A stretch of 64,000 nucleotides of DNA from Mobula hypostoma (Eukaryota), in NCBI RefSeq assembly GCF_963921235.1, contig NC_086097.1:144462001-144526000 (forward strand), written 5' to 3'. This document shows, one piece after another, positions 1 through 43,960 of the stretch. Below the pieces are notes generated by a model. It was not told where the DNA came from, searched no databases, and saw only the letters and a list, made by a program, of their open reading frames with translations. The position numbers and the translations under genes are program-made. The stretch's first letter is position 1, and every line of letters begins with the position of its first letter.

Positions 1-3000
1 GAAGGAACTACTTGATATTCAGCATAAGAACCCAGAAGGAGATTTTTAAAATAGTTATTGGTGTAGAAGTGGTATAAAATTAGTAGCCAATAAATTTTGA
101 TTTTTCCTTTTAACTGGTGCTTCATCTATGATGTCAGCTTTACACAAAATAAAAATCTACCGCTGAAAGTTGTTCCCGCCATTGAGACTGAATCCTCGTA
201 TGACTCTTCTATCATTGCCTTCCCTCGCAAATATTCCCTGCGTTAATGGAAAACTGAACTTCTCTCCCTGCTTTCCATGAAACAAAACATTAAGTAATTC
301 TATCAGTACACTTATTTGAATTGAATGATGAAGTGGTTTTGAAGACAGAGTTTTAACTTTGGGATGAGCCAGCACTGGTTTCTTCCAGTCGTTATGTTCC
401 TTTGTTTGCTTTTACTGTTTGGCTTGGAACTGAACCCAGGACTTGGACCTGAAAGGAAAATGGAGTAAATTTTTGTTTCTGCTGTGTTGGTATAGGGTTT
501 TGTGTACACTGCGAATTCAAAAACAACAAAAAAAACAAATTCTAATATGCATTTCCAGTGTATAAATCCTCCCAGTAAAAGAACATGTAGTCCACCATTC
601 TATCATACAACGGCTACAAAGTTCCTTTTCTGGGTCCAGGATCTTGCTTCAGCCAATTTAATTCAGACCATATTATGATTTATTTTCCAACCAAAGATGC
701 CCTTAGGTCAAAACTGGTAGAATGAAAACAAATGAGCAATCTGACTGGGATTGGCCAATCTAGGACAAGAGGTTAGTGTGGGCTGGCAGGGCAGAGTTGA
801 AATATACAGGTCAATAAACTTACATCTGCCTGTTTAACTAATTTTGGAGTATACGTAACCAGTACTAGATTTGGAACCAGATATGAATTTCATGTTTCCT
901 CAGACTAGCAATTCCCAGTTTAATGAGCAAATTCTTCTCTGCCACATTAAAAATTTGCTTTAGCACTCTTGGTAGAAAGAAAGTACTCATGTTTACGTAG
1001 TATCTTCCAGGTCCTCAGAATGTCACTGTGCATTCCACAAGCAATGATGTTTGTTCTACTGCATGGGAAAATGGCAGGCAATATGTGAATGTCAAAGAGC
1101 AAAGAGTGAGTACTGGATTGTTTGGTGCTACTTAGGGGCAGGATATCGATTCCACGACCCAGAGCTTCGAACAGGTCTTGACGGGAAAGTCGGGGCTTCA
1201 GCTAGAGTGCAGGATCAGACTTTTCATGGATTTCAACTGACTGACTGTCAGGCAAATCAACCCTGAGTCCTAAAGGGGTCCTGGAAGATCCTGATAACCT
1301 GGACGTTTATGGAAGCTAGAGGTTTAGATGCAGGGCTAGCATGAAAAGAGTTGTAATAAGTAAACCTGGATGCAGATGCATGCCAAGAGGAAAACAGCCA
1401 GTGTATAAAATTCATCTTTCAATGCAAGAATGTTCATTTTTCTTCAATGAGGACCTACTAACTGGTTGCAGTCCTTTTAAAGGAGATTGTTAACAATCAG
1501 GCGTTTTCCTGTTTTTCATTAAAATAGTATTCTACACCCCTCCCCTTTCCATCAGTTACGTGCTTACATTCAGCAACTTGGAGTGGGGCATTTCATGGAC
1601 CTGGGTTCTGGCAATTTTGGAGATCAGCCCATGTCCCACCTTTCTATATGTCCGCCAAGCCAGTTGACTTCCTTCCTCTTCCAAGGCACTAGCTCATTCT
1701 AACACCATTAGCTCAATCAGTATGCTTCCTTCACATGGGAACCCAGACAGTGAGGGTCAACAGGCTATTTTCTAATGGAAGACATCAGAGCCAACCCAAC
1801 CCTTCCCATTACATGTCCACACCTACTAGCAGGGGATACTGGATATTAATCAGAGAAAGGAAGCATGCTGTTTTTTTTTCCCTCTACAGACTGGAAGACT
1901 GGAGCCATTTATAAAATTCTGTCTGCTGCTTCTCAGCCAATTTAGCACAAGCTGAAAATTGAACCTGTCATCCTCTTGGTTCATACCCTTCTCTCTTGCT
2001 TTGGTTACCTTCAAATGCAACTGTTCTGATGTTCTCATGGCAGGCATATCATCTCTTGTTGCTAATAAACTTGAAATGGTGCAGAACTCTGTAACCCAAA
2101 TCCACATTCTATGAATTCCTAACCCGTTATCAAATCCTGTTCATCCACCTATCTTGATGAGCCTAATTACCTCCTGGCCAATCAACGCTTCAATTCTAAA
2201 ACACTAAGAACCCATTCAAATCACATTGACATCCTTTCTACCATTTACTGTGCCACCTCTGATTCCTCTCAACAATCAGAGATGCTTCTATTCTCCCCTT
2301 TTGTACTTTTATTGGTGGCCATGCCTTCAGTATCTAAACCACAAACTCCTAAGTTCTTTCTCAAACCTCTCCAGCTTTGTAAAAGTCATCTCCTTGACTA
2401 AGCACTTCCTTCCTTGGCTTGTGTGTTGTCTCTTATCCTGGTGTGAATCCTTCAGAATTTTTTTCTGTGCTTTTAAAAGCACCTTATAAATGCCAACAGC
2501 TGTTCAATGTTCATTGTATCATTCAATAAAAGAAGAACTCAGACCATATCGTCCTTTTACTTCATCATTACATATATAATTAGTGCATTGGTGAATCCTA
2601 TGGTCAGAACAGTGAGTGATGATATTATTCATAAACACTTTGCTTGATTCTCCATTAGCTTCCTTTGTCCACTACGTAAATGAATTCATCAGACTCTCTA
2701 TTTTAAATAATCTCTTCAAGAATGATGGGTAGTGAATATACAAGGTTATCCCTATTATTAATTCTGGACACTTGAATATCTTCTCTTGAATCTAATTATT
2801 CTGTCTAATCTCACTGGGAGATTAAATTCACTTCATTCAACCCATTCCCTGGCTTCAGTCAATGCCTTTCCTGTTCGTGTTAGTGTGATAATCGGAAGGT
2901 TAGAAGTTGCAGTCAGAAGGTCAGAGGTTCCAGTCCTACTGCAATTCCTTGAAACTACAATCTTAGCTGAGACTTCAACTGGCGACGGTGGGAGTGCTGC

Positions 3001-4434
3001 ACTGCCAGAAGTGCTTCAGAGTTCAGATGTTAAAATGAAAAGGTTAGTACCCATAACACTGGAGGAAACTCAACAGATCAGGCAGCATCTATGGATAGGA
3101 ATAAACAGTTGGTTTGCCTGCTTGTTCAATTCTTTGAAACACAGCGACTTGTTTCAATGTTACCAGTTCTGTTGTATAAGGTCCTTATGTCAAAGTGTTC
3201 TGTAATGTTCTTAAGTTGGGAAAGCAAGCTCTTTTTCTTTCACTTTATTTATTTATCTCATTGGCATCCGTGGGATTTTACTGCTTTGCTAACTCTTTGC
3301 TTTACAAAGTGCACACTCTTCCGAGATGTTTTAGTGGCCTTGAAGCATTTTGCCACAACCCAAGCTTCTAAGAGTTGCCTTAGAAATGCATTTTTATTTA
3401 TTAAGAAAAAAGATGAAGTGGAAACCATTTGTTTTATTTAATGCTAGACTTAACCAACTGCAGTATAGAATTCACTCAGGGAGTTAATTTCATCATAGAA
3501 GGCAGGGAAAGAAAGCCCACACCAAGCGGTTTAAAAGAGAATTCCACATGTTGAATTTTTGTTTGAGACAATTAATTATTCAGACACTCACCATCTGTTA
3601 AGGGGAAAACATTCCAGACCTATGTTACTTGTAGTAAAGTCACGATCTAAACATGCCAACATGCAAATTGTCCATTGTATACACCCTTCATCCAGACCAA
3701 TGCAATCTTGCTCAAGACATTACTCCTCATTCACAGATTAATAAACTGTGGAGTCATCTGTTAGCTGCCTAGACCCTATACTCCACCCAATGCAAATAGC
3801 CCTTTATGTGCTCACTTTATTTCCTTTATTACACATTAAAAAAACCTTTAATTTATATAGGCCACCCAAAGTATAACTTCATAGCCAGAAAAGTCATTTT
3901 CTGTAATGTCTTTGCTCTCCTAATGTAGGGAAAGTAGGTGCCAGGATTCAGAGCAAACTGAGATAAAATATATCTGTTTATCTGTTTAGCAATGTTCGTT
4001 GAGAGGTCGACATAGATTTTGTGTATTGTACTAACATTATTGACTGTAGCAACCCACAAAATGCTGGAAACTCAGCAGGTCCAGCAGCTTCTATGGAGGG
4101 AGATAGACAGTTGCTTTTTGTGTGTGTGTGTCAAGACCTTCTTCAGGACTGGAAAGAAATGGGGGAGATAGCCAATATAAAAGGGTGTGGGGAGGGGGTG
4201 GAGCAAGCGCTGGTAGGTGACAGGTGAATTCAAGTAAAAGGGGGAAAGTAGGCAAGTGTATCTCTATTATTGACTCTGTGCTGCCTGGATTAATGGAACA
4301 GTTAGCTAATTGAGATGGAAGTTACATAACTACATTTTCTGGTTTTATTTCCGTCCCCATATCCGATTTGATCCTCATTATTTCATAGTTCCTCTAGCTC
4401 ATTTGGTATTGAGTCATATTAACCAAAATTCTTT

Positions 4435-18660: not shown

Positions 18661-19007
18661 AGAGAAAGTTTTGTCTTTGTTTAGTTGTTCTACATTTTGA
18701 AGCTGACAATTTCATTACTGGTGCCAAAGTCTTTCACCTTGAAGTTCAAAATGAGAAGACAGAATCTCAACAAACTTCCAGAAGCCCAGGAATACATGAA
18801 AAGGTCCTTGTAGATAAACATCTGCAAGGAACTTATGTTGAAGAGGTGCTGGAATCAAAAGAATAAGAATAGTAAATAGTCAACTTTGATACAATAGGAC
18901 AAGAAAATGTATGGTTACTCACCTCTTTCATATCTGGACTTCACTATTGATTTACCCTAAATAACTCTTTATGTTGACCTAGACCTGTCTTCCTGTTTTA
19001 TCTGCAG

Positions 19008-19490
19008 GTTATCAAATCTGGGGTGGAGACCACCTGCAAATGTCATGGGGTTTCTGGTTCCTGCACAGTTCGGACTTGCTGGAGGCAACTGGCACCTTTC
19101 CATGAGATTGGCAAGTTACTCAAGCTGAAGTATGAGACTTCGCTCAAGGTGGGCAGCACAACTAATGAAGCGACTGGCGAAGGGGAAATTACGCCACCGA
19201 AGAAAGCCATTCCAGCTACCTACCACCAGCAAAATCAGATCCCAAGGACTACTGACTTAGTCTATATCGATGACTCACCAAGCTTCTGCCGGCCAAGCAA
19301 GTACTCACCAGGTACTGCAACACGGAAATGCTATAAGGACAAGAATTGTGAAAGCATCTGCTGTGGCCGGGGACACAATACCCAGAGTCGAGTAGTGACA
19401 CGACCATGCCAGTGCCAAGTGCGCTGGTGCTGTTATGTGGAGTGTAAACAATGTACTCAAAGAGAAGAGATATACACCTGCAAAGACTAA
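19008..19490 (+). CDS. wnt9a: Wnt-9a, final coding exon (upstream exons not found in window)
   Basis: Polypyrimidine tract and acceptor (tcctgttttatctgcAG|GTT) at 19007/19008. Translation [36 protein letters not shown]...[18 protein letters not shown]...[48 protein letters not shown] carries the Wnt CKCHGxSGSC signature. VETTCK, STTNEA and [21 protein letters not shown] match WNT9A rather than WNT9B as I recall them. Stop TAA at 19488-19490. Confidence 0.95.
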
Positions 19491-26500: not shown

Positions 26501-29500
26501 GTCAAAGAGCTCCTGATATTATTGCTAATGATTCCAGCACCTGGAGTCTCCTGTGTAACCAGAATATTTAGATTTCTGTTGATAGAGGAAGGCCGTGGGA
26601 ATGAGCAGACTTTTAATTCCATTACACTCAATAGTCCCATGTTTCTTCTAACTCAAACTATATGATTTGATAGAAACGACAAACAGGAAGGCCACCATAC
26701 TTCTCAGGAGTTTATTCCATAATATTTGACAAAGTGAAATAAAATATTATCATTATTTTGAGTGCTGATGTTGCAATCATTGTAAAATTGTTAGTGAAGG
26801 AGAACTATTCAATGCAGTTTAATGAAATCACCCAATCCAATGAAGTATGAAGAACACATAAAATGGGGTATCTTAGGCCTGTGAAATTGCAAATCCCCAC
26901 CCCAATGTTTGTGAAGTGAGCAAGTTACTTTGGGAACACTTCGTTCTAACGGGTCATGCCAATGTGCATCAGAAAGCCAATTTCATCTGGATACCATTCT
27001 AGTATGGAGTGTTCCTCATCTCACTACACTGACAAGTAGAAGACTTCTTGAAATCACTGTTGCCGAGAAAATCATCTTCATTTGATAGCACTAAGCATAC
27101 CATGAGTAAGTAAGAGTGCATTGTACTCTGCTTTCAAAATTCAATTTGGGGTTTTGGAGGCAGAAGGCAATATTTTGCAATGACTAGTGTTAAATGCTAC
27201 TGACTAGTGATAAATTAATGTCTCCAACAGAACATCTCTAATTGCAAAAGGATTACAATACTTAAAAGTTCCTGAGATGTGAGCATAAATAGTAGTCCCT
27301 GGCCAGCTTGGAGAAGCTGATGATGAGTTGGCTTGAAGCACTCCAACTCATGAAGTGAAAGGACTCCCTTTATGTTTTCAGCAGGTGATCGAATGGTTAA
27401 TGATGTGCCAATGCAACTACTGACCCAGTTCTGGACTGTGGAGCTCATTGGTTTAGAGTGATGCAGTTGAAGCTTTGATGAATTAGTTATAGTTGTAATG
27501 AATTGCTTTGAATTAGTTACTGTTACTATGAGTCAGGCACAGCAGCCATTTTGAACAAATCTACTGCTTTTTGGAGAGCTCTGTAGTCTGCTTAAAATAG
27601 TGCAATGAAATCTTTCTGATATCCAGATGATGATCCCTGACAATGCAGTACTTCTTTGGTACTACAGCGTTAGTTGTGATATATAACTTAATCAGACAAG
27701 ATGGAGTGCTTATAACATCTGAGTAGGAGAGTAGGAGCCCTTTCCCAAATTAATCTAACTGAAAAGTGGAAAAAGAAAATTAAAATGTAGCCATTGCATT
27801 CCTGATACTAACATGCCCAGGTTATGTGTGTGTGTGTTTTATTTTCTCTCACAGAGTCTAATGGAGCCTAAATTATTTGTTTCTACCTCATGTGCATAGC
27901 TTGTAGGTAATGTACTGATTCTTCAGAGTGACTGTGGAGGATGTATTTAAATTATTTAACACCTTGGTATAACAAAAATAAGAGAATTTTGGAAATAAAT
28001 GAAGTGTGAATTATTTTTCAAATGTGTTTTGTCTTCATCCTTCTCATTTCAAATCTGTAAGGTGTAAAAATGGGAGAAAGTTTTGCATTCAACATGGCAA
28101 GGAAACTCATGGCAGTTAAAGATCAGGAGAAGGCTTCATAGATAGTTTGGGTGGGAGAGAGATGGCTGAATTTTGAATGATCTGAAGCTGAATAGGGGTC
28201 TTTGGGGGACTCCACAGTTTCAACTTTTCAGAGAGTACATGAGATGGATCTTCATCTTCTAGCTCTTTTTATGGTCGTCAATAATCTTCATCAGAGCTAA
28301 AATCATACTCATGACAGAGGGCTCAGCAAAACCAAGTTCACCAAGAAAGATTTTAAGGATAGCCTACAAAAGAAAACATAATTGAAGAGGAATGGGCCAA
28401 GAGACTTGAGGGTGATAGATAGAAGCAAATGAGGGGAGGGTGGTGACATTATGAGCATTTCCCTTAACCTGCAATATTGTGGCATCCATCCTGTCCTCTC
28501 TCAGTCCTTATAGAGAGTTTTAACCTTGAAATATAGCTTTTGCCTAATTGACTCATTGAGTTCTTCTAGCATTTTCTTTTCATTCCAGATTCCAGTATCT
28601 ACAGTCACTTTTCTCTTCAATGATATTGAGTCTGAGGCTTTGAACTTTCATTTTGGTGAAATAGTTCTACAGTTGGGGATAAAGGATATTGCAACACACG
28701 TGTGAGAGATCTAATGATGCCGCAGCAGTTTTTAGGAGGGAGGGACTGGGAGTGCACAGCAATCCAGGGAAGTAGTAAAATTGTTTTCCTCTAACTGAGG
28801 CATAGGTCTATACAGCTCTGAGCATTTCACATTGTGCTGCAACATTTAAATCAGTTTGGTTCCAAAAGTTTGCAAGTGACTCTTTGGCTTGCTTTAGAGT
28901 TTGAGGTTTCATGATAATAATGTAGCCCAACACCTTTGCACGTATTCTACTGTACCATCTCAATTTTACATGATTGTGAACTGTCAACATCTCACCGGCC
29001 CCAAGCTGCATATTAGATTTTGTATATTACACATGACCCATTGCATTCCTATCGTGTGCCAAATGGCACACCACACATCAGGTAGCACACCACATCATGT
29101 CAAATGTACCACACATCATACTCACACCACATAGCAGCCACACTCCACTTTGCAACCAAAAATTGTAACAAAATATTCTTCAAAATAGACTAAGAGGGAG
29201 AGTAAAACAATATTTTTAATGGATTTTCTAACTTTGGGATAACTCCCTGAGCAGTCACCAGTCAAGCAGTTTCTAGGAACAAAAATTCAAATGCAATTTA
29301 CATCTAATCAATGTATCAATTAAATCTTCCAGATAATTGATAAAATGATTAACAACTAAATATGCTGACTACAGTCCAATCCAGAGTAATAAGAAATTAC
29401 TTTGACCCAGTCTCATGTTTGGTGTTGATTAGTTCTTATCCAGAGAATTCATATTAGAGGGATCAGAAGTGGTGACTTCATGTGATCAGACATGATCTTC

Positions 29501-29843
29501 TTCACTGCCAGTTGAGGTGTGATCTCATTTAGGGGAATATCTAATTAAAGAATTGGGTTCAAGGTCAGCACACTCAATTTGAATTTTGCAGTCAAATATT
29601 ATATATTCAGATAACAGTGGAAAGTGTGGGCAACAATATTCCCAATACTTGTTGATGTACTTACCTCTCAATTTGTGCAGATGATTTAATGCCACAGCCA
29701 CAGATCTCAAAATTTCCTTAGTCTGCGTTTTAATAAAATGATGTCCAAGATTTGTTGGATTTATGGAAGAACAACAACTGTAAAAGTCATCTATAATTTT
29801 AGAGAAGGCCATCATCTCTACAATACTTGTGGCAAACTTCCCT

Positions 29844-31016
29844 TGTGATGTATTGGGTTTACTGACGGTGAGTTCTAAACTCAAACGGAGGGCTTAAACT
29901 CTATCAAATATAAATAGCCACGTGTACTCTCACTAAAGCGAGATTATACTGTAATTACCCAATCTTCAAAAACTAGTTTACCTCGCTGTTTATTCTGCAT
30001 GTCGAGTTTTAGTTGCCAACACCTACTAAGTGAGCAATGGGTCCCCCTCACTACCAAGGAAAAGATACTTCCAACTAAACAAAGTACTTTAAACACAGTT
30101 CAATTATTTTCAGTGATATGTGTTTAAATCCAAACAATGTTCTTAAAACATTTAAAATTCATAGAGGATTTCTAGCTTATAAAATATTTCCAAATTACAA
30201 ACCAGTTCTAAAACATAAAGGATTTCCAAAACACAGGTATAATTCCTTTAATCTAAATAGAGACACTAATAATGCAAAACGAATTGTCCACTGAACAAAC
30301 TGAAGCCAGAGGAAGGAATTCTAGTCACCCCATCTTCCTATCGTTCTTCTTGATGTTCTTTAGCCACAGCTGATAAGCTTGAACTGCTCTCTACATTCAT
30401 ACCCTTTTTCTATCACTTGCATGATTTCACACATATATGATATTTCCTCAGTTACCCCTTTAACACAAATTGTCTAAATACATTTTGGAGACATAGATCT
30501 CAGCTTAAAGCTCACAGTTCACAATTAATGCTATGAAGCTAACTTCCATGAGTATATAAATCTTCCAACTAAAAATACATCAGTTATTTGATATGCTAAA
30601 TAATATTATCCACCTGGTTCTGCAATTTTTCATGAACCAAGCAACTTAGAGTCAGCTTGTCTGTTTGAAACAAGCCAAATTAAACAACTCAATATCTTGT
30701 TCTGCATCTCAAGCAGCAATAAACCAGGTGTCGTGAGCTAAATCTTATTTCTCACAGACAGTGTATCTATCCTCAATGCAGTGTGTATGCAAAGCTGTTC
30801 TATACACAGTACTTGTTCTAACATCAAGCTGATTACTGCTTGCCATTTACATTTTAAGGACTGAAGACTGACTTCCATTTATGACTAGAAGTCAATTGTT
30901 AGTTGAAAGTTTAATTACAATTGTTTGTGATTTTACAAGTGGCTGCCACTGTGTTTAGAAAGCAAGATTAACAAACGACCAAAAGGCCTACTGGCCAGGA
31001 GTGAATATTCATCACA
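29844..31016 (-). repeat. 3' LTR of the foamy-like ERV (1173 bp)
   Basis: Bounded by a perfect 7-bp inverted repeat, TGTGATG (29844-29850) and CATCACA (31010-31016). Directly preceded on the minus strand by a polypurine tract. Minus-strand AATAAA at 29989-29994 and candidate TATAA at 30177-30181. Its U5 end is homologous to 43832-43935. Confidence 0.85.
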
Positions 31017-31026
31017 TCCCCCTTTT
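31017..31026 (-). promoter_or_regulatory. Polypurine tract (plus-strand primer site)
   Basis: Minus strand reads AAAAGGGGGA immediately followed by the LTR start TGTGATG. Confidence 0.8.
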
Positions 31027-32689
31027 GTTAAGCAAGATTTTTAGCCCAGCTTCTTCCAACACACATCAGCTTCAAGATCAAGACACCTCTCTGGAACAGA
31101 CTATCATTGTTCCATCTATTCCAGTAGGTTACCAATGCTAGAAAGGCTATCTTTGATCTGATACCAAAGAACTATTGAGTACTTCCAAATTTAGAGGTTT
31201 CTGTGTGATTTCTCTTCAGAATATTGACTTCCTCAATCTCAGCTGGACACATTTCCCAAACCCCAAAGGAATTACAACATTATAATTGTCCACAAGCATG
31301 CAACAATGATGCATCAACATCCATATTAGCCCATCTTTAAGATCTTCTTCCCCACAAACAGTTCTTGCCATTTCTTTGATGCAAGTTCAAATCACTGTCT
31401 CTGTGGCCATTAGTTCATCAGGTCATCTTTTCTCATAGGAGTGTTTGCATTGTGTTTGATGTGGTGCACAACTTTACTGAGGTTTCATGAAAGCAAGACT
31501 CATAAACAATTTACTGATTGTGTATTACTGTCTTCTTATGCCCAAGGGTTAATAAACACACATTTTAATTTTAGAAAATTATATCCATCAGTTACATGAT
31601 TTCACAATATAACAATATGCATAAAAAAGGAAACATTTACAAAAGTTATGAAGAGTACAGTTCTGTTGAGGATTCTGCCTAAACTCACAGAAAAAAAAGT
31701 GTCACAACGTACATTAGAGTTGGCTATGTCCCTCTTGTGGGAGTGAACACCAACTCGTATGATATAACTGAACATTCTGCTACCAACCAGACCATCCGCA
31801 TGTTTCTTCCCATCGTCATGATTCTGGACTCTATAATTGTTCAGGTCTCCCCCCTTTACTTTGTTAAGGACTGGGCCTGACTGAGAAGAATTTGATACAT
31901 CTTTCCAACTTTTGTGATTTCCCTGAAAACTCTAACTGAGCAAGGCAGTTCTGTCAGATCATGGGATTTTATCAACCAAATATACAAACTATTCTTATAG
32001 CATAAAGAGCAATTTTGGTAGGGTTAGTGGTTCTACTTGTTGCATTGTAGGAGTACCAGATATGCAATATATGCTTATACCCAAATAGTAAGTAAAACAC
32101 ATTCATATAGTTCTACCTTAAGACAATATAAAACTTTGTAGATCTTGGAGGCCCTAGGATTACATCTCTGTTTCCAAATAAATCACAATCAAATAGGTAA
32201 AAAGGTTGGCAGGAGTATAGCATTCCTCAGGGGCAGCTATTTTTCTCCTACTCATAAGTCTTTTACCATTGTATAAGATAACACACAAAATATAGTAAAA
32301 TAGATGGTTTGCATATAAAAGTAAAGATATAAATTATGATAATTTAATACTGTCCCTAGCAGTGAACAACAGATTTACAAAGTTTAATCTATTAAAATCT
32401 TAAGAACCATATATATAAAAAGTTACCCATGTTAGAAAGTAAATATGCAACATCCAAATAGGTAAGTAAAAATAATCTTTGTTGACTCATCTCTCTGTGG
32501 GATTGTGTTATTAGACCAATTATTCAGGACAGCAGATAGCAAAGCAGTCATACTAGAGATACATTATATTATATTACAGTGCAGGTCAGGCATGGGAGTT
32601 AAAGAGTCTTAGGAGTGGAGCCATTGTACAAAAAAAGGATAGGTCACCAAACTTGCATTCTTGCAGGCTTGAACATTTTAGAAAATGAG

Positions 32690-33640
32690 CACTACAAAAA
32701 CAGCTAATCCAATGACTAGGGGAATTGTCCATTGGAAAAATGCAAAGAGGAAATCTTCAAACAAATTCAAAGTAGTGCCAATCCACCCAGAAACTGTTCT
32801 TGCTGATGCAGAACCGAAATTTGCAACATCTGGAAAGGTTTTAGGTATTGTTTCAACTAGAACATACAGCCAGTCAGGGGCTTAGTATCAGTCTGAAAAA
32901 GAAGCTTATAAAAGAGAAAATCTGCAGATGCTGGAAGTCCGAACAACACACACACACAAAATGCTGGAGGAACTCAGCAGGTCAAGCAGCATCTATGGAA
33001 AAAAGTACAGTTGACGTTTCTGGCCGAAACCCTTCAGCAGGACTGGAGGAAAAAAGCTGAGGAGTAGATTTGAAATGTGGGGAGAAGGGAGAGAGAAACG
33101 GGAGGTGATAGGTAAAACTTGGAGATGAGGGATGAAGGAATGAGCTAGGAAGATGATTGGTGAAAGAAACAGAAGGCCATGGAAGAAAGAAGAAAGGTGG
33201 GAGGCGTAGTGGAGGCATTACTGGAAGTTTGAGAAATTGATTTTCATGCCATCAGGTTGGAGGCTACCCAAATGGAATATAAGGTGTTGTAAAAGGAGGG
33301 TGTCTCACTCATCTGATTGTGTCAGTTCAGTGACTTGGAATGTATAGAGAAATATTATTTTAATTTGACTGAGTTTCTTCCAGCCATTGTTGATGAATAT
33401 CAAGTCCTCCTAAAAATATTATCATAAGCACCATTTCTTCCTGGAGTTTGTGTCTGTGTTATTCTGAAGACAAAAACACCTTCTGGATGTATTATGCCCG
33501 GGCAATGGATCTATGAGATCATCCTGAAGTAAACAGGAATTTTTACATTTCTTTTTGGATCTTAACATGTATTTTATCTTTTCAATACAACTCACCCTGT
33601 CCTTCCCATTGGTGTGTAGAGGTTCCACGGTCTAACATAA
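32690..33640 (-). pseudogene. env: env remnant (mostly deleted; TM C-terminus retained; split by a Penelope insertion)
   Basis: 32690-32880 (-) translates APDWLYVLVETIPKTFPDVANFGSASARTVSGWIGTTLNLFEDFLFAFFQWTIPLVIGLAVFVVLIF*. This resembles the foamy Env TM end (TPAWIQQLAAATKDVWPAAA...GYLKPILIGVGVILLVILIF) and ends in a hydrophobic anchor. The assignment of 33290-33640 to env is positional and weaker. Confidence 0.7.
32908..33290 (-). mobile_element. Penelope 3' terminal fragment inserted in ERV env
   Basis: acacacaaaatgctggaggaactcagcagg terminal repeat, hammerhead-like motif at 33008-33045, and a purine-rich tract. Confidence 0.85.
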
Positions 33641-34977
33641 GGGTTCTACTCATTCTAGGGGCATAAATCCTGCTAGGGTAGGTTTGATGTTATTTGTGGA
33701 GACAGTTTTACTTACAGTCTTGTTTCCTCTCCTGGTCTTGATTACCACAGTCCTATTGTTGATAACTTAGGTAATGAGACAAGGATGTTTCCATCCAGGA
33801 TGGAAACTAGGGTCAGAATTATTTTTATGGAATTTCTTTTCTTGGAGCCAGTCTCCTTTTTGTTGTATCCAGACTTTCTTTTCAGGTTCTTTTGCTTTCT
33901 CTTGAATTTCCATAAAATCTCTCAATTACTTGAAGAGAGTTGTTTCAGGTATAGGCAATGATCGATGTGAGTTAGTGATCAGGATGTATTTAGGTAAACA
34001 TTGTACATCAAGAAATAAAGTGTAACATTCTTGTGTCCTCCTATTTTCATAATTGACAAGATGTTTATGGCCAATGAACTCCAGGGACAAGTAAAGCCCA
34101 CTTTTGGACTCTAGACCAGTTTTGCCAGACTTTGCTTAATCTTCTGATTTCTTTGCTCCACCCTACCACTCGATAGTGGATGGAATGGAGTGCTGTACTC
34201 CACTTGTATGACTGTTTATTCATACATGGAGATCCTGTATCAGCATGTATTCAGGTGGTGGGTGGGGGGGGGGTGCAAGGTGTGGGAGTGGCAGCATATG
34301 AGAATATGGAGTTTTGGAGTGCTGTGGTTGTTGCGGCCTCATCACAAGAAACTGTGAGGACTAACTGCATATATCCCATACAAAGTTCAACTATCATAAA
34401 AATATACCTATCAGTTTTCTGATGAAGTGGGTTAGTTGGAGATGCTGGATATAGGCCTATTGAATTAATTTGCTACATCTGCATTGGTGCAGTTGGCTTT
34501 GTTTGTCTAGTAGGAAGTGATCTTGTGACTGCTCCTTTATCATAGGCCAGACATTCTTCACAATTTGCAATTCATTGTTTACAATCACTCAACGTGTAAG
34601 GCCACCAGTATAACATAGCTAATTTTGCATGAGTGGCTTGTTCGCCACTATAATTGTGTTTGAATCCTCGGTGGTCTTCTTGAATTGGTGCTTCCCGCTT
34701 GTGGGCAGGATGTATTTGCTTCTTTTTTTATAATCTAGGCCAACATACCCAAACGTTGCCCTCACCTTTAGCTTCATATTTGTACCATGTTGGAAATTCT
34801 TTTGGATTGAGTTCAAAAGTATTGAGAAGAATTCTTAAAACATCAACCTGGTTATTTTTTACTTATTGCTTAGTTACTACCAAAACGGTCTCCCTTACCG
34901 TAGTAATATCCATCCCAAAAGAGGCCTACAGTATGTCCCAGGAAGTGTAACACCTGTACTAATGGTTTAAACAAAAA

Positions 34978-36625
34978 TAGAACATAGAACATAGAACATA
35001 GAAAACCTACAGCACGATACAGGCCCTTTGGCTCACAAGGTTGTGCCGAACATGTCCCTACCTTAGAAAGTACTAGGCTTACCTATAGCCCTCTATTTTT
35101 CTAAGCTCCATATACCTATACAAAAGTCTCTTAAAAGACCCTATCGTATCCGCCTCCACCACCATTGCCGGCAACCCATTCCACGCTCTCACCACTCTCT
35201 GAGTAAAATACTTACCCCTGACATCTTCTCTGTACTTACTCCCCAGCACCTTAAACCTGTGTCCTCTGCGGCAACCATTTCAGCCCTGGGAAAAAGCCTC
35301 TGACTATCCACACGATCAATGTCTCTCATCATCTTATACACCTCTATCAGGTCACCTCTCATCCTCCATTGCTCAAAGGAGAAAAGGCCGAGTTCGCTCA
35401 ACCTGTTCTCATAAGGCATGCCCCCCAATCCAGACAACATCCTTGTAAATCTCTTCTGCACCCTTTCTATGGCTTCCACATCCTTCCAGTAGTGAGGCGA
35501 CCAGGACTAAGCACAGTACTCCAGGTGGGGTCTGACCAGGGTTCTGTATAGCTGCAACATTACCTCTCAGCTCCTAAATTCAATTCCACGATTGATGAAG
35601 GCCAATACACCGTATGCCTTCTTAACCACAGAGTCAACCTGCACAGCTGCCTTGAGCATCCTATGGACTCGGACCCCAAGATCCCTCTGATCCTCCACAC
35701 TTCCAAGAGTCTTACCATTAATACTATATTCTGCTACCATAATTGACCTACCAAAATGAACCATTTCACACTTATCTAGGTTGAACTCCATCTGCCACTT
35801 CTCAACCCAGTTTTGCATCCTATCAATGTCCCGCTGTAATCTCTGACTGCCCTCCACACTATCTACAACACCACCAACCTTTGTGTCATCAGCAAACTTA
35901 CTAACGTATCTCTCCACTTCCTCATCCAGGTCACATAAAAATCACAAAGAGAAGAGGTCCCGGAACAGATCTCTGAGGCACTCCACTGGTGACTGACCTC
36001 CATGCAGAATATGACCCGTCTACAACCACTCTTTGTCTTCTGTTGGCAAGCCAATTCTTGATCCACAAAGCAATGTCCCCTTGGATCCCATGCCTCCTTA
36101 CTTTCTCAATAAGCCTTGCATGGGGTACCTTATCAAATGTCTTGCTGAAATCCATATACACTACATCTACTGCTCTTCTTTCATCACTGTGTTTTGTCAC
36201 ATCCTCAAAAAATTCAATCAGGCTTGTAAGGCATGACCTGCCCGTGACAAAGCCATGCTGACTAATCCTAATCATACCTCTCCAAATGTTCATAAATCCT
36301 GCCTCTCAGTATCTTCTCCATCAACTTACCAACCACTGAGGTAAGTGGGCTAGCTCTACTCCCTTTCTTGAATAAAGGAACAACATCCACAACCCTCCAA
36401 TCCTCCGGATCCTCTCCCGTCCCCATTGATGATGCAAAGATCATTGCCAGATGCTCAGCAATCTCCTCCCTCACCTCCCACAGTAGCCTGGGGTACATCT
36501 CATCCAGTCCCAGTGACTTGTCCAAATTGATGCTTTCCAAAAGCTCCAACACATCCTCTTTCTTAATATCTACATGCTTAAGCTTTTCAGTCTGCTGCAA
36601 GTCATCACTACAATCACCAAGATCC
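34978..36625 (-). mobile_element. CR1 LINE 3' fragment
   Basis: RT fragments (SQHGFVTGRSCLTSL, SKFADDTK, RGDLIEVYK) and a tandem (agaacat)n tail at 34979-35003. Inserted within the ERV RNase H region. Confidence 0.95.
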
Positions 36626-37224
36626 TTTACATAATAATTCATAAATATTCCTAACATAGTTAGAGTCAGTACATATCAATCAAGATCGGCTGTGTTGTAT
36701 TTACTTGTTTTGGACATAATTTTAGGGATTTAGCCTCTGCAATTTGAGTTGTATGATTCCCTAAAGGATGTGCTTACAACTTATGTGGTTCAAAGTCAGT
36801 TTCCGATATAAAGATAATTCCTTTTATAATCAGAAGCAGTGATTATAATTGAGTGGATCCAACTTTCTGGATTTTCATTGTTGATTCATTTCAGTAATAT
36901 ATTTGAGAATAGTGCTCTAAAGGATGTTGTGCTACATTGGGTCATAGAGAAAGTGGCTTTGCATTTTCCATGAAAGGTAAGGATTCTAAGTTAGAGCTTC
37001 CAAGAATGTTTTCTTACATTAAGATGTTGTCTTCTAAAAGTGTTTGCCATTTACCATGTCTAGTTATAGTAGCTCACTGTTCATTTGTTGATAATTTGCT
37101 TTCATTTTTCAAAGCTGCAAGCTCTGTTTGTATAATGATTGGTTTGCCCCTTGCAGTGTCTCACTGCACTGTGTTCAGGCATTGTTCTAGAGCAGTGTAT
37201 TTCTGTTCCACTGATGAGAAATTG

Positions 37225-39147
37225 CAGTGCCTTGTAAAAGTACTCAGCCCCCAACCCTTAGTTCACATGACTGGGTATTGCAACCAGGGATTTTGATCAA
37301 TTTAGCTGACAATTTTTATTTGTGAATCACACGCTTGTTTTTTCACAATAGAATCTTAAAAACTGAGGAAATTGTAAAGCATGAAAAACTAAAAATATAA
37401 AAATTGAAATGCTAGCAGATCAAAAGTATTCATCTCCCTTTGCTCAGTACTTAATTGAACCATCTTCTACAGCTATCACAGACAATAGTCTTTTCGGATA
37501 AGTCTCTTCTAGCTTTGCACAACATGGTGGAGCAAGATTTCCACATTCCTCCTTGTAAAACTGTGCCACATTTGTAGGGGAATGGCAGTGGACAGCAATC
37601 CTGAGGTCCCGCCAGAGATTTTTGATCGGGTTAAAGTCAGGACTCTGACCGGGCCATAGAAGGACATCAATTTTCATTATTTGAAGTCACTCCATGTTTG
37701 CTCTGGCGATGTACCTTGGGTCATTGTCCTGCTGAAAGATGAACTTCCTCCCCAGCTTAAGCTTTCTGACAGAGGCTAGCAGGTTTTTATCCAGGATCTC
37801 TCTGTATATAGCAGAATTTATCTTCCGTTCAATCCTGACCAGATTTCCAGTTCCTGCTGCTGAAAAGTATCCCCATAACATGATGTTGCCTCCACCATAC
37901 TTTACAGTGGTGATGGTGTTAACCGGCAGATGAGCAGTATTAGATTTATGCCCACGTACCGCTTGGTGTTGAAGCCAAAAATTTCCCCTTTTGTCTCAAC
38001 TGAACACAAGACCTTCTTCCACATCATTACAGCATCGTCTAAGTGACACTTTGCAAAGCCTTTGCTTTTCTTTTTAGCCAGCTCTTCTCCCTTGCCACTC
38101 TTCCATAAACACAACTTTATTCAAGGCCTTGGAGATTGTGGAGCCATGAACTTCATCTCCTGTTGCAGCCTCTGGCTTCTGCAGCTCACTCGGTGTGACT
38201 GTTGGCATCACAGTAGCCTCTCTTACAAGTGCCATTCTTCTTTGGCGACTAGGTTTAGAGAGGCGGCCTGACCTAAGCAGTATGGTTGTGGTTTCATATT
38301 TTTTCCACTTCTTCATGATCAGCTGCTCTGAGCTCCAAGGTGTGTTCAGTGCCTTTGAGATGGTCTTGTACCCTTCCCCAGCTTTGCCCTTCTCTAATAT
38401 CAATTCCTTAACTTGGCTTGAATGCTCTTTTGCATTCATTTTGGTTTGGTCTGTTGAAAATCTACCATATTGTTGGGCCTTACAGAGAGAGGGGTACTTA
38501 TTCAGGCGATCTTCAAATTTTCTACTTCAACAAATTGGGTGAGTTGGTAAGGTAATATACAGTATTGTAGCTGAGGAAAACTAGAGTAGTAATTACAAAG
38601 GGGGTGAATACTTTTTCAGCCTCACAATTTTGTTCTTTAATTTTTAATAAATTGTTGACTGATTTTGGAATTTGCCTTTTGATTTGACATGATGCACAAT
38701 GTTCAGAATCAGAATCAGGTTTATTATCACCATGTGATGTGAAATTTGTTAACTTAGCAGCAGCAGTTCAATGCAATACATAATCTAGCAGAGAGAGAGA
38801 AAAAATAACAAATAAAATAAAACAAAATAATAAATAAACAAGTAAATCAATTACGTATATTGAATAGATTTTAAAAATGTGCAAAAACAGAAATATGCAG
38901 AAACAGCAATATTTAAAAAAGTGAGGTAGTGTCTAAAGATTCAACGTCCGTTTAGGTATTAGATGGCAGAGAGGAAGAAGTTGTTCCTGAATCACTGAGT
39001 GTGTGCCTTCAGGCTTCTGTACCTCCTACATGATGGTAACAGGTTTAGATTAGCTCAAAAATCCACCTCAATATACTTTAAGTTTAGAAAATGAGACATT
39101 AAAATGTGAAAATAGTTGTGGGGGTGAAATACTTTTTCAAGGCAATG
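37225..39147 (-). mobile_element. Tc1-like DNA transposon (IR/DR type) with decayed transposase
   Basis: Termini CAGTGCCTTGTAAAAGTACTCAGCCCC and GGGGTGAAATACTTTTTCAAGGCAATG, with TA at 39148-39149 (TG on the left). Inner repeats at ~37423 and ~38597. ORF fragments on the minus strand: [40 protein letters not shown]. Confidence 0.92.
38705..39040 (-). mobile_element. Rex1-type LINE 3' tail inserted in the Tc1
   Basis: (agaatc)2 tail followed by aggtttattatcac, and gatggcagagaggaagaagttgttcctgaatc matching other Rex1 ends. Confidence 0.7.
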
Positions 39148-40089
39148 TATATGTAGCATTGTGTATTGGGGTTTGTGTTTCTTCTTCCTCATTATAGCAG
39201 ATAGCTACAGTGGGTTTTGGAGAAACATGAATTAGCAGAACAGGAGATTTGGTTAGGTCTCTTGTCCTGAGGTCTATAGCTTGCTGAACTGCATTCATCT
39301 ATTTCTCTAGTGTTTCATAATCTTCTGGGGTAAAAACATTAAGTGTTGCATTGTTGTAACGCCTGTTGCTGGGCCAGATTAGGAACTGAGTGTTTATTTA
39401 AAACAAGGTTGTCAATGACCAATCTCCATCATCCATCAGGCTTTGCCTTGGCAAAAATGGGTGAGTTAAATCAAAAAGGTTCTTTTATCAAAACACTTTG
39501 TTTACAGGGGGAATCTGTTGGAATTGCTTTCCTTTGTGTTTGGGAACGTGCCACTGTTTCTGGCATGGGAAAGGATGGTATTCCACTTCAGTTGGCTCAA
39601 TGTCAACCATCCCACAGTAGTTAGGATGTTGTTGTAGGTGGTCATAATATTTGTATACAACGTTTCCATTTTGCTCTGTTCGTTTTAACCTGATGACAGT
39701 TGAGCTGTCTCTGAATATGTATGTTTCTTTCATTTGGTGCAGTTGCATCAGTTGTTGGTTTAATTGTAGTACAAATCCAAAAAGAAACATCCAATGTTCC
39801 TATTTCATGTGATAGTTTACTTCCATCTGGGTGAACTGATGTAAAGACTTTACGGCTACTTCTATTGTTCATTTCATCCCGTATATCTATAGGGGAACTT
39901 TATCATTTGGGCACTCTACCTTGTTTCCATGTATGCCTACAATTTAAATTTTCCCTGTTGGCTCCCCTAGTCTATCGCCTTGACCAATATCGGAATTTAG
40001 CATTGAAACATCTACACCTGTATCAAAATGGTAAGGTCGAATTTTGCCAAATATATGAGCTTTGGCATATGAAAAGGCGAGACTAGATG

Positions 40090-40945
40090 TGCCTATGCCC
40101 TATTTGTCAGATGGAGCATTTTGAGTAGAGTTGTTGTTGAAATTCTCCTCTGCCATTTTTATTACATTAATGTTGGCCTTCCCCTGCTTTACATTTTGAT
40201 TTCTCTGAGCTGCAGGGGAGGGAGTGGACATTTAGGATGGGCCCTGTCCCCTTGTACGGTATATTAGAGGGTGAAGGATAAGGTGGGCCATGACGTGTCT
40301 ATCAGGAGTGTTTCATACTCTTCTCCATAATATCAGTGGGGCCTCAGAATGTTCCCTCTGTCCCGGAAGGAGTATCTCATTCTAAGACTTCCTTCCACAA
40401 AGAGAGGGGGATGGATCTATAGGTTGTAGCCTATACCTAGCGACTACCCATCCAGTTTATGGGGGAATATCTCTTCCGAAGGCAGGCGATCTTCAGGGAA
40501 CTTGTTTGGTTTGTTCATTATGTCTTCTCTGCTGAAGGTCTAATGTAGGAGGATGCTGTGAATGTGATCGACCCAAGGAATGAAGATGTTGTGATGACTT
40601 TGCTACTGTCCCTACTTCCCTGTATGGAAAAGATGAGAACCCTGTGCCAGCACCTGATTACCCTTGTGTGGGAACGAGTGGTAATCCTACTACCACCGAG
40701 TGGGATCACAAGATCACTTCAACAGCCTGAACTCATTCATGTGTTAGGTGTTGATTAAGGGCTGTTCCACGCATGATGCGGGGCTTTCACTGGGATAAAG
40801 GGGTAACATTACAGAATGAACTACAGTAGGTCCCAGTCTGCCCTTCCTATTTGTTCTCCGATCTTATAAACTGCTATTAAGCCCTGGCTTTCAATTATTT
40901 TACTCAGTACAATACTAACTCCTCAACATACATCTCCACCTAATA
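40090..40945 (-). pseudogene. gag: gag remnant (3' part)
   Basis: Lies between PBS and protease. The segment SIVLSKIIESQGLIAVYKIGEQIGRADWDLL (~40825-40917) loosely resembles the foamy Gag capsid-like region. I saw no Cys-His box. Heavily decayed. Confidence 0.5.
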
Positions 40946-40949
40946 TTAG

Positions 40950-43645
40950 CTGAATATCCAAGGATACACAGCGTATAGGAAAAATAGGAAGGTAGGTAAA
41001 GGGGGTGGCGTGGCCCTGATGGTAAGTAACGATATCAAATCAATAGAAACAAGGGACATAGGATCATAAGAGGTAGAATCCTTATAGGTAGAATTAAGAA
41101 ATGGCAAGGGTAAAAAGACACTAATAGCAGTTATATACAGGCCTCCAAACAGCAGCCGGGATGTGGACTACAAGTTGCAGCTGGAAATAGAAAAAGCGTG
41201 TCAGAAGAAAAATATCAAGATAATTATGGGGGATTTTAATATGAAAGTGGATTGGGAAAGTCAGGGAAGGTAATGGATCTCAGGAGAGGGAGTTTGTAGA
41301 ATGCCTACAGGATGGCTTTTTGGAGCAGCTTGTCCAGAAGCCCACCAGGGGACCGGCTGTTTTGGATTGGGTGCTGTGTAACGAACCTGGGGCGATTAGG
41401 GAGCTGGAGGTAAAGGAACCTCTTGTAAGTATAATATGATTGAGTTCAGTTTCAAATTTGAAAAGGAGAAGCTGGTATCAGGTGTATCGATATTTCAGTG
41501 GAACAGGGGAAATTACAGTGGTATGAGAGAGGAACTGGCCCGAGTCAATTGGAAAAGTAAACTAAATGGAGGGACGGCAGAGCAGAGTTGGATGAAATTC
41601 CTACAAGAAATAAGGAAAATGCAGGAAAAATATATTCCAAGAAAAAAGAAAATCATGAATGGAAAAATGCCACAAATATGGCTAACGAGAGAGGTTAAGG
41701 CAAAAATAAAAACAAAAGAAACGGCGTACAAGGAAGCAAAAATTAGTGGGAAAAATGAGGACTGGAAGACCTTTAAAAACTTACAGAAAGAAACTAAGGA
41801 AGTCATTAGGAAAGAAAAGATGAATTATGAAAGGAAGTTGGTGATTAACATAAAAAAGGATACTAAGAGCTTTTTTTAAATATATGAAGAGTAAAAGAGT
41901 GACAAGAGTAGATATGGGACCGATTGAAAATGATGCTGGAGTAACTATAATGGATAACAAAGAGATGGCGGAGGAACTGAATGAGTATTTTGCATCAGTC
42001 TTCACAGTGGAAGACATGAGCAATATACCTGATAGCCAGAGGATCAGGGAATAGAATTAGGTACAGTCAAGGTAACTAGAGAGAAAGTGCTTGAGAAGCT
42101 AAGTGGACTAAGAATAGATAAGTCTCCCAGCCCGGATGAGGTGCACCCACGGGTTCTGAAGGAGGTGGCTTTGGAGATTGTGGAAGCATTGGAAATGATC
42201 TTTCAGGAATCAATAGACTCTGGCATGGTTCCGGAGGACTGGAAGGTCGCAAATGTAGTTCCGCTATTTAAGAAAGGAAGGAGGCAGCAAAAAGAAAATT
42301 ACAGACCTATTAGTCTGACATCGGTGGTTGGAAAGATATTGGAGTCAATCCTCAAGGACGAGGTTATGAAATACCTCGAGGTGCATGACAAGATAGGCCG
42401 AAGCCAGCATGGTTTCATGAAGGGAAGATCCTGCCTTACCAACTTATTGGAATTTTTTGAGGTAATCTGAATAAGATTGACAAGGGAGAGGCTGTGGATG
42501 TTGTGTATTTGGATTTTCAAAAGGCCTTCAATAAGGTGCCGCATATGAGGTTGGTTAATAAGATGAGAGCCCATGGAATTATAGGAAAGTTATTGAAATG
42601 GGTGGAGCATTGGCTGATAGGCAAAAAGCAAAGGGTGGGAATAAAGGGATCTTATTCTGATTGGTTGCCGGTTACTAGTGGTGTTCTGCAGGGGTCGGTG
42701 TTGGGGCCGCTTCTTTTTACGATGAACATTGATGATTTGGATTATGGATTAAATGGTTTTGTGGCCAAGTTTGCGGATGACACCAAGATAGGTGGAGGAA
42801 CAGGAAATGTTGAGGAAACGAAAAGGTTGCAGAGAGACTTAGTCAGTGTAGGAGAGTGGGCAAAGAAATGGCAGATGAGATACAACGTTGACAAATGTAC
42901 AGTTGTACATTTCGGAAGAAGAAATAATCTGGTAGATTATTATTTAGATGGGGAGAAAATTCAAAAATCGGAAGTGCAAAGGGACTTGGGGGTCCTCATG
43001 CAGGATACCCTAAAGGTTAACCACCAAGTTGGATTGGCGGTAAGGAAAGCGAATGCTATGTTGGCATTCATTTCAAGAGGAATAGTGTATAAGAGTAAGG
43101 AGGTGTTAATGAGGCTCTATGGGGCATTAGTGAGACCTCATTTGGAATACTGTGTGCAGTTTTGGGCCTCCTATCTTAGAAAGGAGATACTGACGTTGGA
43201 GAGAGTTCAGAGAAGATTTACGAGGATGATTCCTGGAATGCAGGGGTTATCATATGAGGAGCGTCTGTCGGCTCTTGGATTGTATTCATTAGAGTATAGA
43301 AGAATGAGAGGGGATCTCATAGAAACGTTTCGAATGTTGAAAGGGTTGGACAGAACAGATGTGGAAAGGTTGTTTCCCTTGGTGGGTAAGTCCAGGACAA
43401 GAGGCCATAGTCTTAGAATTAGAGGGTACCCAGTTAAAACAGAGATGAGGAGAAATTTTTTTAGCCAGAGGGTTGTGGATTTGTGGAATTCGTTGCCACA
43501 TATGGCTGTGGAGGCCCGATCATTGAGGGTGTTTAAGGAGGAGATTGACAGGTATCTAATTAGTCAGGGTATCAAGGGATATGGGGAAAAAGCTGGAAAT
43601 TGGAACTAGATGGGTGAATAGTTTAGCTCATGGGGGAGCTGCGGA
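40950..43645 (+). mobile_element. CR1 LINE, 5'-truncated ORF2 (endonuclease end plus RT)
   Basis: AVIYRPP and IMGDFN endonuclease motifs; ORFs with ENYRPISLTS, QHGFMKGRSCLTNL, QGSVLGPLLF, KFADDTK, LEYCVQFW. The 371-aa C-terminal ORF is open. Confidence 0.95.
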
Positions 43646-43811: not shown

Positions 43812-43829
43812 GGGTCACTTTGGGCACCA
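43812..43829 (-). promoter_or_regulatory. Primer binding site, tRNA-Lys1,2-like
   Basis: Minus strand TGGTGCCCAAAGTGACCC lies 2 nt after the 5' LTR end and matches the Lys1,2 PBS TGGCGCCCAACGTGGGGC, used by foamy viruses, at 13/18 positions. Confidence 0.7.
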
Positions 43830-43831
43830 AC

Positions 43832-43960
43832 TATGATGGTATTGGGTTTGCTGACTGCCAAGTTCTAAGTTCAAATGAAGACCTTGATATTAGATATAGA
43901 AAGCCACGAGTACTCTCACTGAAGGGAGATTGATCTGGCAACTCTAGCATTTATACTCTG
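43832..43960 (-). repeat. 5' LTR remnant (U5 end only)
   Basis: tatgatggtattgggtttgctgac...agccacgagtactctcactgaagggagatt aligns with tgtgatgtattgggtttactgac...agccacgtgtactctcactaaagcgagatt at 29844-29945. Homology fades at about 43935-43960. Confidence 0.8.

Follow-up and report, generated by a model that had tools for sequence, protein, structure and literature searches.

What did the stretch between env and the 3' LTR of a decayed provirus on the minus strand of this DNA originally contain? The question was raised by an earlier note on the window (the whole 64-kb stretch of DNA analysed here), which had placed about 1.66 kb without recognisable transposon between an env anchor stopping at 32690 and a polypurine tract (PPT) and LTR starting at about 31026, and had suggested that accessory ORFs once occupied it. 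The layout is confirmed with small corrections. The anchor frame ends with a stop at 32680-32678, within about 10 nt of the proposed position, the PPT AAAAGGGGGA, identified by sequence inspection, covers 31026-31017, and the LTR begins at 31016, where it is also visible as a roughly tenfold jump in contig depth. The gap between them (31027-32677, minus strand) thus measures 1651 nt up to the PPT, and it matches neither the rest of the 64-kb window (the best blastn alignment has E 0.025 and spans 29 nt), nor Rfam (a single row with E 0.32 lies in the LTR), nor, at gathering level, any Pfam family in any of its six frames. Because a basic stretch after the anchor stop continues in another frame to about 32645, the true end of env is uncertain by about 40 nt. 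Multicopy occurrence and low-stop coverage make the gap a candidate for decayed accessory genes.

Layout and foamy-like identity of the provirus

The provirus is read on the minus strand throughout. Its 3' LTR (31016 to 29844 or 29846) is long (~1.17 kb), starts with TG and ends with CA, is preceded by the PPT, and contains a TATA motif (TATAAG at 30181) and a poly(A) signal (AATAAA at 29994). Of the 5' LTR only about 100 nt are left, namely the U5 end at 43832-43931 (76% identity to 29945-29846, E 1.5e-14); its start is lost, and upstream of it no further LTR match was found at E 1 except for an 18-nt chance match. Directly behind this remnant lies the primer-binding-site-like sequence TGGTGCCCAA (43812-43829), which, read from 43829, may be a tRNA-Lys primer binding site. 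The pol gene is represented by a protease and partial RT remnant (39030-40140; DTG motif in the translation, low-stop coverage p 0.005), a connection/RNase H remnant (36650-37230) and an integrase remnant (33630-34980), while the RT core is largely lost. LINE insertions interrupt the gag and pol remnants at about 43600-40960 and 36640-34980, and a Tc1/Sleeping-Beauty-like transposon lies in pol at 37230-38620 (Pfam HTH_SB E 6.3e-13). The LINE insertion in gag includes a 382-codon open RT frame (42461-43609, plus strand) and looks younger than the provirus.

Two env-like remnants follow the integrase: a probable 5' env remnant at 33300-33600, assigned by its position after the integrase and without a database match, and a C-terminal remnant with a membrane anchor at 32678-32900, assigned by position and hydropathy. 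The anchor remnant has a KD value of +1.68 and a T frequency of 0.63 at codon position 2, and presumably resembles the end of foamy Env. Its env label, which draws on position, hydrophobicity and this resemblance, is unconfirmed: no database search returned a confirming match to the env-like remnants, and Atlas gave only sub-0.9 leads for the anchor. About 530 nt of env survive, compared with about 2.8 kb for the whole gene; the env of gecko foamy virus has 942-943 aa according to the accessible text of PMC6669660. The position of the missing four fifths or so of env is taken by a high-copy retroposon piece (32905-33290) with copies elsewhere in the window and a depth of 1e5-2e6. Contigs of two other organisms reach the edge of this piece, which may therefore be common to several species.

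Identification of the element comes from pol. In a PDB search the integrase remnant matched the integrase of prototype foamy virus with E 8.8e-9 and, in its C-terminus, 0.006, and all PDB matches were to foamy Pol (5/5 and, for the C-terminus, 5/5); Pfam adds Integrase_H2C2 and SH3_11. Foamy Pol likewise provided the top five of eight PDB matches of the connection/RNase H remnant (best E 2.4e-8, Pr125Pol, 7o0g), and the pro-RT frame was tried without a database match. On the sequence of these Pol remnants, which are closest to foamy-virus Pol, the element is identified as a foamy-like retrovirus. The motif GGGTG at the PPT-LTR border is given as a criterion for foamy and foamy-like viruses in the accessible part of PMC5210030; the border of this single copy, decayed by roughly a tenth, reads GGGGGA-TG and is one base off. 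No TATAAA internal promoter was found on the minus strand between 29700 and 34000 of this copy, from which most of env is deleted; TATAAAA is also missing from coelacanth and tuatara EFVs, as far as the accessible text of PMC6669660 goes.

The surroundings of the provirus mark the window as vertebrate DNA. They include the last exon of a wnt gene (18978-19490, plus strand; Pfam E 1.8e-48), some 10 kb away from the 3' LTR and presumably Wnt9-like. The window also carries LINE reverse-transcriptase remnants, an 84-nt tandem repeat near its end (63241-63408), and an abundant short repeat which we take to resemble the HE1/HER1 tail. HE1/HER1 are elements of sharks and rays (accessible part of PMC3747384), and on this likeness the host is probably one of them. 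The single-copy flank behind the LTR (28200-29893, minus strand) reaches p 0.01 for low-stop coverage, has no Pfam match and includes a 122-codon open frame at 29525-29893, which starts inside U5.

Traces of former coding in the gap

All three minus frames of the gap are riddled with stops (32, 36 and 33 in 557 codons). Stop triplets are depleted on the sense strand, with 101 found against 124 expected (z -3.3), and flank controls reach z -3.9 in the same measure. Low-stop coverage, measured in 100-codon windows with at most two stops, extends over 67% of the sense strand of the gap compared to 22% in shuffles (p 0.005). This signal is strand-specific (plus strand of the gap p 0.43), the coverage of the LTR is 0, and two of 16 strands of the flank controls reach p 0.01. 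Among the pol remnants, integrase and pro-RT pass as the gap does and RNase H fails. A frameshift-tolerant stop score gave z -1.5 for the gap and is powerless, as its RNase H control gave z +0.5.

Four low-stop stretches of the gap occupy two different frames. The one most likely to be a genuine relic of coding sequence is a stop-free frame of 109 codons at 31605-31931 (minus), hydrophilic at first and with a hydrophobic C-terminal stretch, whose codon-position bias (chi2 18.2, p 0.006), with G and A at position 1 and T at position 3, is like that of RNase H and integrase. Its length and bias together were matched by seven of 6000 shuffles; its bias value was reached by nine others among 88 frames of the window, seven of these nine coinciding with LINE or pol remnants or with the strand opposite them. 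The other three, all on the minus strand, show no periodicity: 32163-32486 (108 codons, two stops, T-rich and hydrophobic; p 0.63), 31859-32182 (108 codons, three stops, in another frame; p 0.90) and 31031-31414 (128 codons, three stops; p 0.54), the end of which adjoins the PPT, the position of bel2/acc2 in relatives. Altogether periodicity is present in one of seven stretches of the gap and absent in six. Frameshifts blur periodicity, and the integrase C-terminus is likewise not periodic (p 0.37). There is thus a modest coding signal on the sense strand of the gap, and we regard it as quite likely that the gap was formerly coding.

A viral but largely non-coding gap, i.e. a long 3' UTR, a promoter or an RNA-export element in which no more than a single short ORF, at about 31931-31605, would be embedded, would account for the T-rich composition, which in the upstream half of the gap is nearer to U3 than to pol, for the six stretches without periodicity and for the stop deficits of similar size in the flanks, and there is a precedent in the tuatara EFV, reported without accessory genes in the accessible text of PMC6669660. 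We nevertheless consider it unlikely, because low-stop coverage, at 0.67 for the gap, drops to 0 in U3 and the rest of the LTR and is confined to one strand, the missing periodicity may reflect frameshifts as in the integrase C-terminus, and a non-coding RNA of 1.65 kb at this position is not described in the accessible parts of the foamy and foamy-like ERV literature cited here.

The minus strand had also been described in the earlier note as stop-riddled and partly hydrophobic. Stops and the peptide in question, DYFYLPIWMLHIYFLTWVTFYIYG at 32477-32406 (minus) within the stretch 32163-32486, are indeed there, but hydrophobicity is at chance level, since the gap has three TM-like windows where 500 dinucleotide shuffles yield 2.4 +/- 1.5 (p 0.44), and the surrounding stretch lacks periodicity. 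T is high at all its codon positions (0.38/0.41/0.44), unlike in the env anchor, where it is high at position 2. With a TM count as in shuffles and a periodicity p of 0.63, the peptide is not supported as evidence of a gene. It is accordingly improbable that the virus carried a membrane-spanning, glycosylated accessory protein in the tas/bel2 slot, unrelated to known retroviral proteins. Such a protein, with several hydrophobic helices upstream and a C-terminal anchor at about 31665-31605, could for example have modulated host surface or immune molecules, a proposal of equally low probability. If true, it would define a class of accessory gene not seen before in spumaviruses, since teleost FLERV accessory ORFs are reported without TM motifs in the accessible part of PMC5210030.

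Searches for relatives of the gap gave no usable match. Similarity to Tas/Bel1 or Bel2/Bet was found neither in Pfam, using the three minus frames whole and in thirds, nor in PDB, these searches having little power on broken frames. Two plus-strand Pfam rows below the cut-off (PIN_TASOR E 0.012, DUF5615 E 0.14) were rejected. A PDB sequence search with three gap frames produced nothing beyond a chance E of 0.37 to a bacterial protease domain. A word-index search of 5.8 billion clustered proteins, which is weak and was run with two gap frames on shorter proteins, scored none of 361 and none of 245 candidates; as the integrase positive control was blank too (0/1297), absence of relatives is not established by it. 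The single match among 1.84 billion representatives (one frame), a 4132-aa tandem-repeat protein with 36 weak stretches summed, was discarded as an artefact, and seven loci considered as candidate relatives were rejected with only 17-24 nt in common. Atlas gave no usable match for the 109-codon frame, and nothing related to the gap appeared in viral, metagenome and prokaryote collections. Single-sequence models reached pLDDT 65 and pTM 0.36 for 32163-32486 and pLDDT 36 for 31031-31414; fold matches of the gap models numbered 0/17 viral and none in PDB at E 0.001.

Copies, age and decay of the family

The stretch or part of it is contained in 20 of 24 listed sequencing runs, under nine organism labels. 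Depth was compared in four runs of four organisms, using contigs on 29000-34980 at 80% likeness and leaving out the small shares in the organisms labelled E-I. Mean summed contig depth, which is not equivalent to copy number, rose from 11-18 in the flank to 236-366 in the gap and 284-391 in env/integrase, and reached 2500-3700 in the LTR. In all four runs the gap thus reaches 0.83-0.95 of the env/integrase depth and 21-30 times that of the flank, and even the lowest of its nine 200-nt bins is 9-15 times above the flank. Each run has 12-14 contigs at position 31091. Pieces that diverge from this copy by about 13-19% map to the gap in three of the runs, one of them the probable source sample, which also contains this copy itself with 0 differences. 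A paralogous contig bridging a junction was not among the 32 pieces listed of more than 523,000. Because gap depth parallels that of env/integrase in all four runs and divergent pieces are present, the gap is a trait of the family: it belongs to a multicopy proviral family and is not a one-off insertion. An unrelated insertion missing from other copies, which the earlier note had named as one finding that would speak against accessory genes, is largely refuted by the multicopy gap in all four runs. By depth the family has tens of internal copies. In the four runs the depth of the LTR exceeds that of the internal region about 10-fold and that of the flank more than 200-fold, which points to hundreds of solo LTRs.

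Contigs of all three other organisms span the flank-LTR junction, and those of two also span the LTR-gap and gap-env junctions; the insertion site is therefore common to four species. In putative orthologues, picked by single-copy depth and identity, the gap diverges by 2.3%, 6.6% and 9.0%, equal to flank, LTR and env/integrase (Fisher p 0.16, 1.0 and 0.96). Divergence at the rate of the flank indicates neutral decay, with no sign of host co-option. The U5 ends of the two LTRs differ at 19 of 98 sites (K2P 0.23), about twice the widest species distance, in a short alignment that carries no absolute date. The provirus family is old, its site here being common to four species up to 9% apart.

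Two further origins of the gap can be weighed against these data. Host DNA or another repeat, for example from a membrane-protein gene, could have been captured before amplification, which would fit a gap that is unrecognisable as foamy and whose translations show several stretches of hydrophobic residues along with N-glycosylation-like motifs; this is very improbable, however, since no Pfam, PDB or library match points to such a source, the TM count is at chance level, and the depth follows env/integrase and not a separate repeat. An insertion private to the locus or a sequence co-opted by the host, which retention in four species and a position about 10 kb behind the wnt exon might suggest, is already largely refuted by the multicopy gap in four of four runs, flank-like divergence in three of three comparisons and the breakage of all frames, and we give it hardly any credence.

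Proposed history and comparison with known foamy-like viruses

We consider it likely that the gap is where a foamy-like retrovirus family carried its accessory genes. The accessory ORFs proposed in the earlier note are supported by the modest coding signal, by membership of the gap in the family and by precedent at the same position in foamy and foamy-like ERVs, and not by the hydrophobic peptide. A foamy-like family would have become endogenous in a vertebrate host, probably a cartilaginous fish, prior to the split of the four related species. In its infectious ancestor the interval from env to the PPT would presumably have contained one to three ORFs for non-structural proteins. If foamy viruses are a guide, splicing or an internal promoter most likely supplied the transcripts for these products. 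To judge from position only, these products may have served viral transcription and counter-defence, with a transactivator-like one upstream and a Bel2/Bet-like one downstream; this pairing of Tas-like with Bet-like roles, suggested by analogy, is tentative and rather less likely to be right than wrong. After integration, this copy lost most of env, part of gag and RT and most of the 5' LTR, received LINE, SINE and Tc1 elements, and has been decaying neutrally; it encodes no intact protein. As far as the DNA indicates, the present copy is inert sequence. This single copy is too decayed to address function, while tens of internal copies and about 10 times more LTR open the accessory region to comparison between copies.

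In mammalian foamy viruses, tas/bel1 and bel2/bet sit behind env, up to the PPT. The gap has the same position, and the Pol remnants of its provirus are nearest to prototype foamy virus Pol; it differs in that it has no Pfam match, no TATAAAA was found and the border reads GGGGGA-TG instead of GGGTG. A cartilaginous-fish endogenous foamy virus was reportedly described by Wang, Chen and Cui in J Virol in 2023 (97:e0181622), probably from the same host and virus group, and may already cover this family. For foamy-like ERVs of elasmobranchs, a literature search covering accessible main texts brought up no description of an accessory region, and a prior description is quite possible. In their accessible parts, the shark ERV papers PMC4422223 and PMC10699275 do not treat accessory genes, and PMC8227577, bioRxiv 2021.11.23.469661 and PMC3747384 hold nothing on them.

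Ray-finned fish offer several comparisons in the accessible parts of PMC5512871 and PMC5210030, namely AciFLERV with acc1a, acc1b and acc2, AliFLERV with acc1 and acc2, and the ORFs of DrFV-2 and AcERV. The gap resembles these FLERVs, as far as they are described there, in its position between env and the 3' LTR, in coding room (ORFs of 234-253 aa) and in the lack of similarity to known proteins, and its length would accommodate a pair of ORFs of the size known from cichlid FLERV, about 250 codons each. It differs from the same descriptions in three respects. Fish FLERVs have extra ORFs between pol and env, whereas here an env-like remnant directly follows the integrase; acc1a and acc1b are internal paralogues there, but none were detected here (self tblastx best E 0.025); and teleost ORFs, reported under purifying selection in the accessible text of PMC5210030, have no TM motifs, whereas the gap, compared by description, has hydrophobic stretches at chance level.

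Position-defined accessory ORFs without homologues are also reported, in the accessible parts of the respective papers, from newt and cichlid FLERVs (PMC5512871), teleost elements (PMC5210030), amphibian EFVs (bioRxiv 2020.12.18.423569), stork and sea-snake EFVs (PMC6955096) and a chevrotain EFV (PMC10581153). In these partial sources, NviFLERV-1 (acc), ERV-Spuma-Rbi, -Smu and -Ame, and ERV-Spuma-Cbo and -Hha have one or two position-defined accessory genes without known homologue. The amphibian, bird and snake EFVs belong to other host classes, and the gap retains broken frames only. A layout with unidentifiable accessory ORFs behind env is thus already known from fish, amphibian, bird and snake relatives. 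To these the present locus adds a likely cartilaginous-fish example, which would be in line with foamy-like viruses of all jawed vertebrates keeping accessory genes behind env, and is relevant to the question of whether genome complexity is an ancestral trait of foamy-like viruses.
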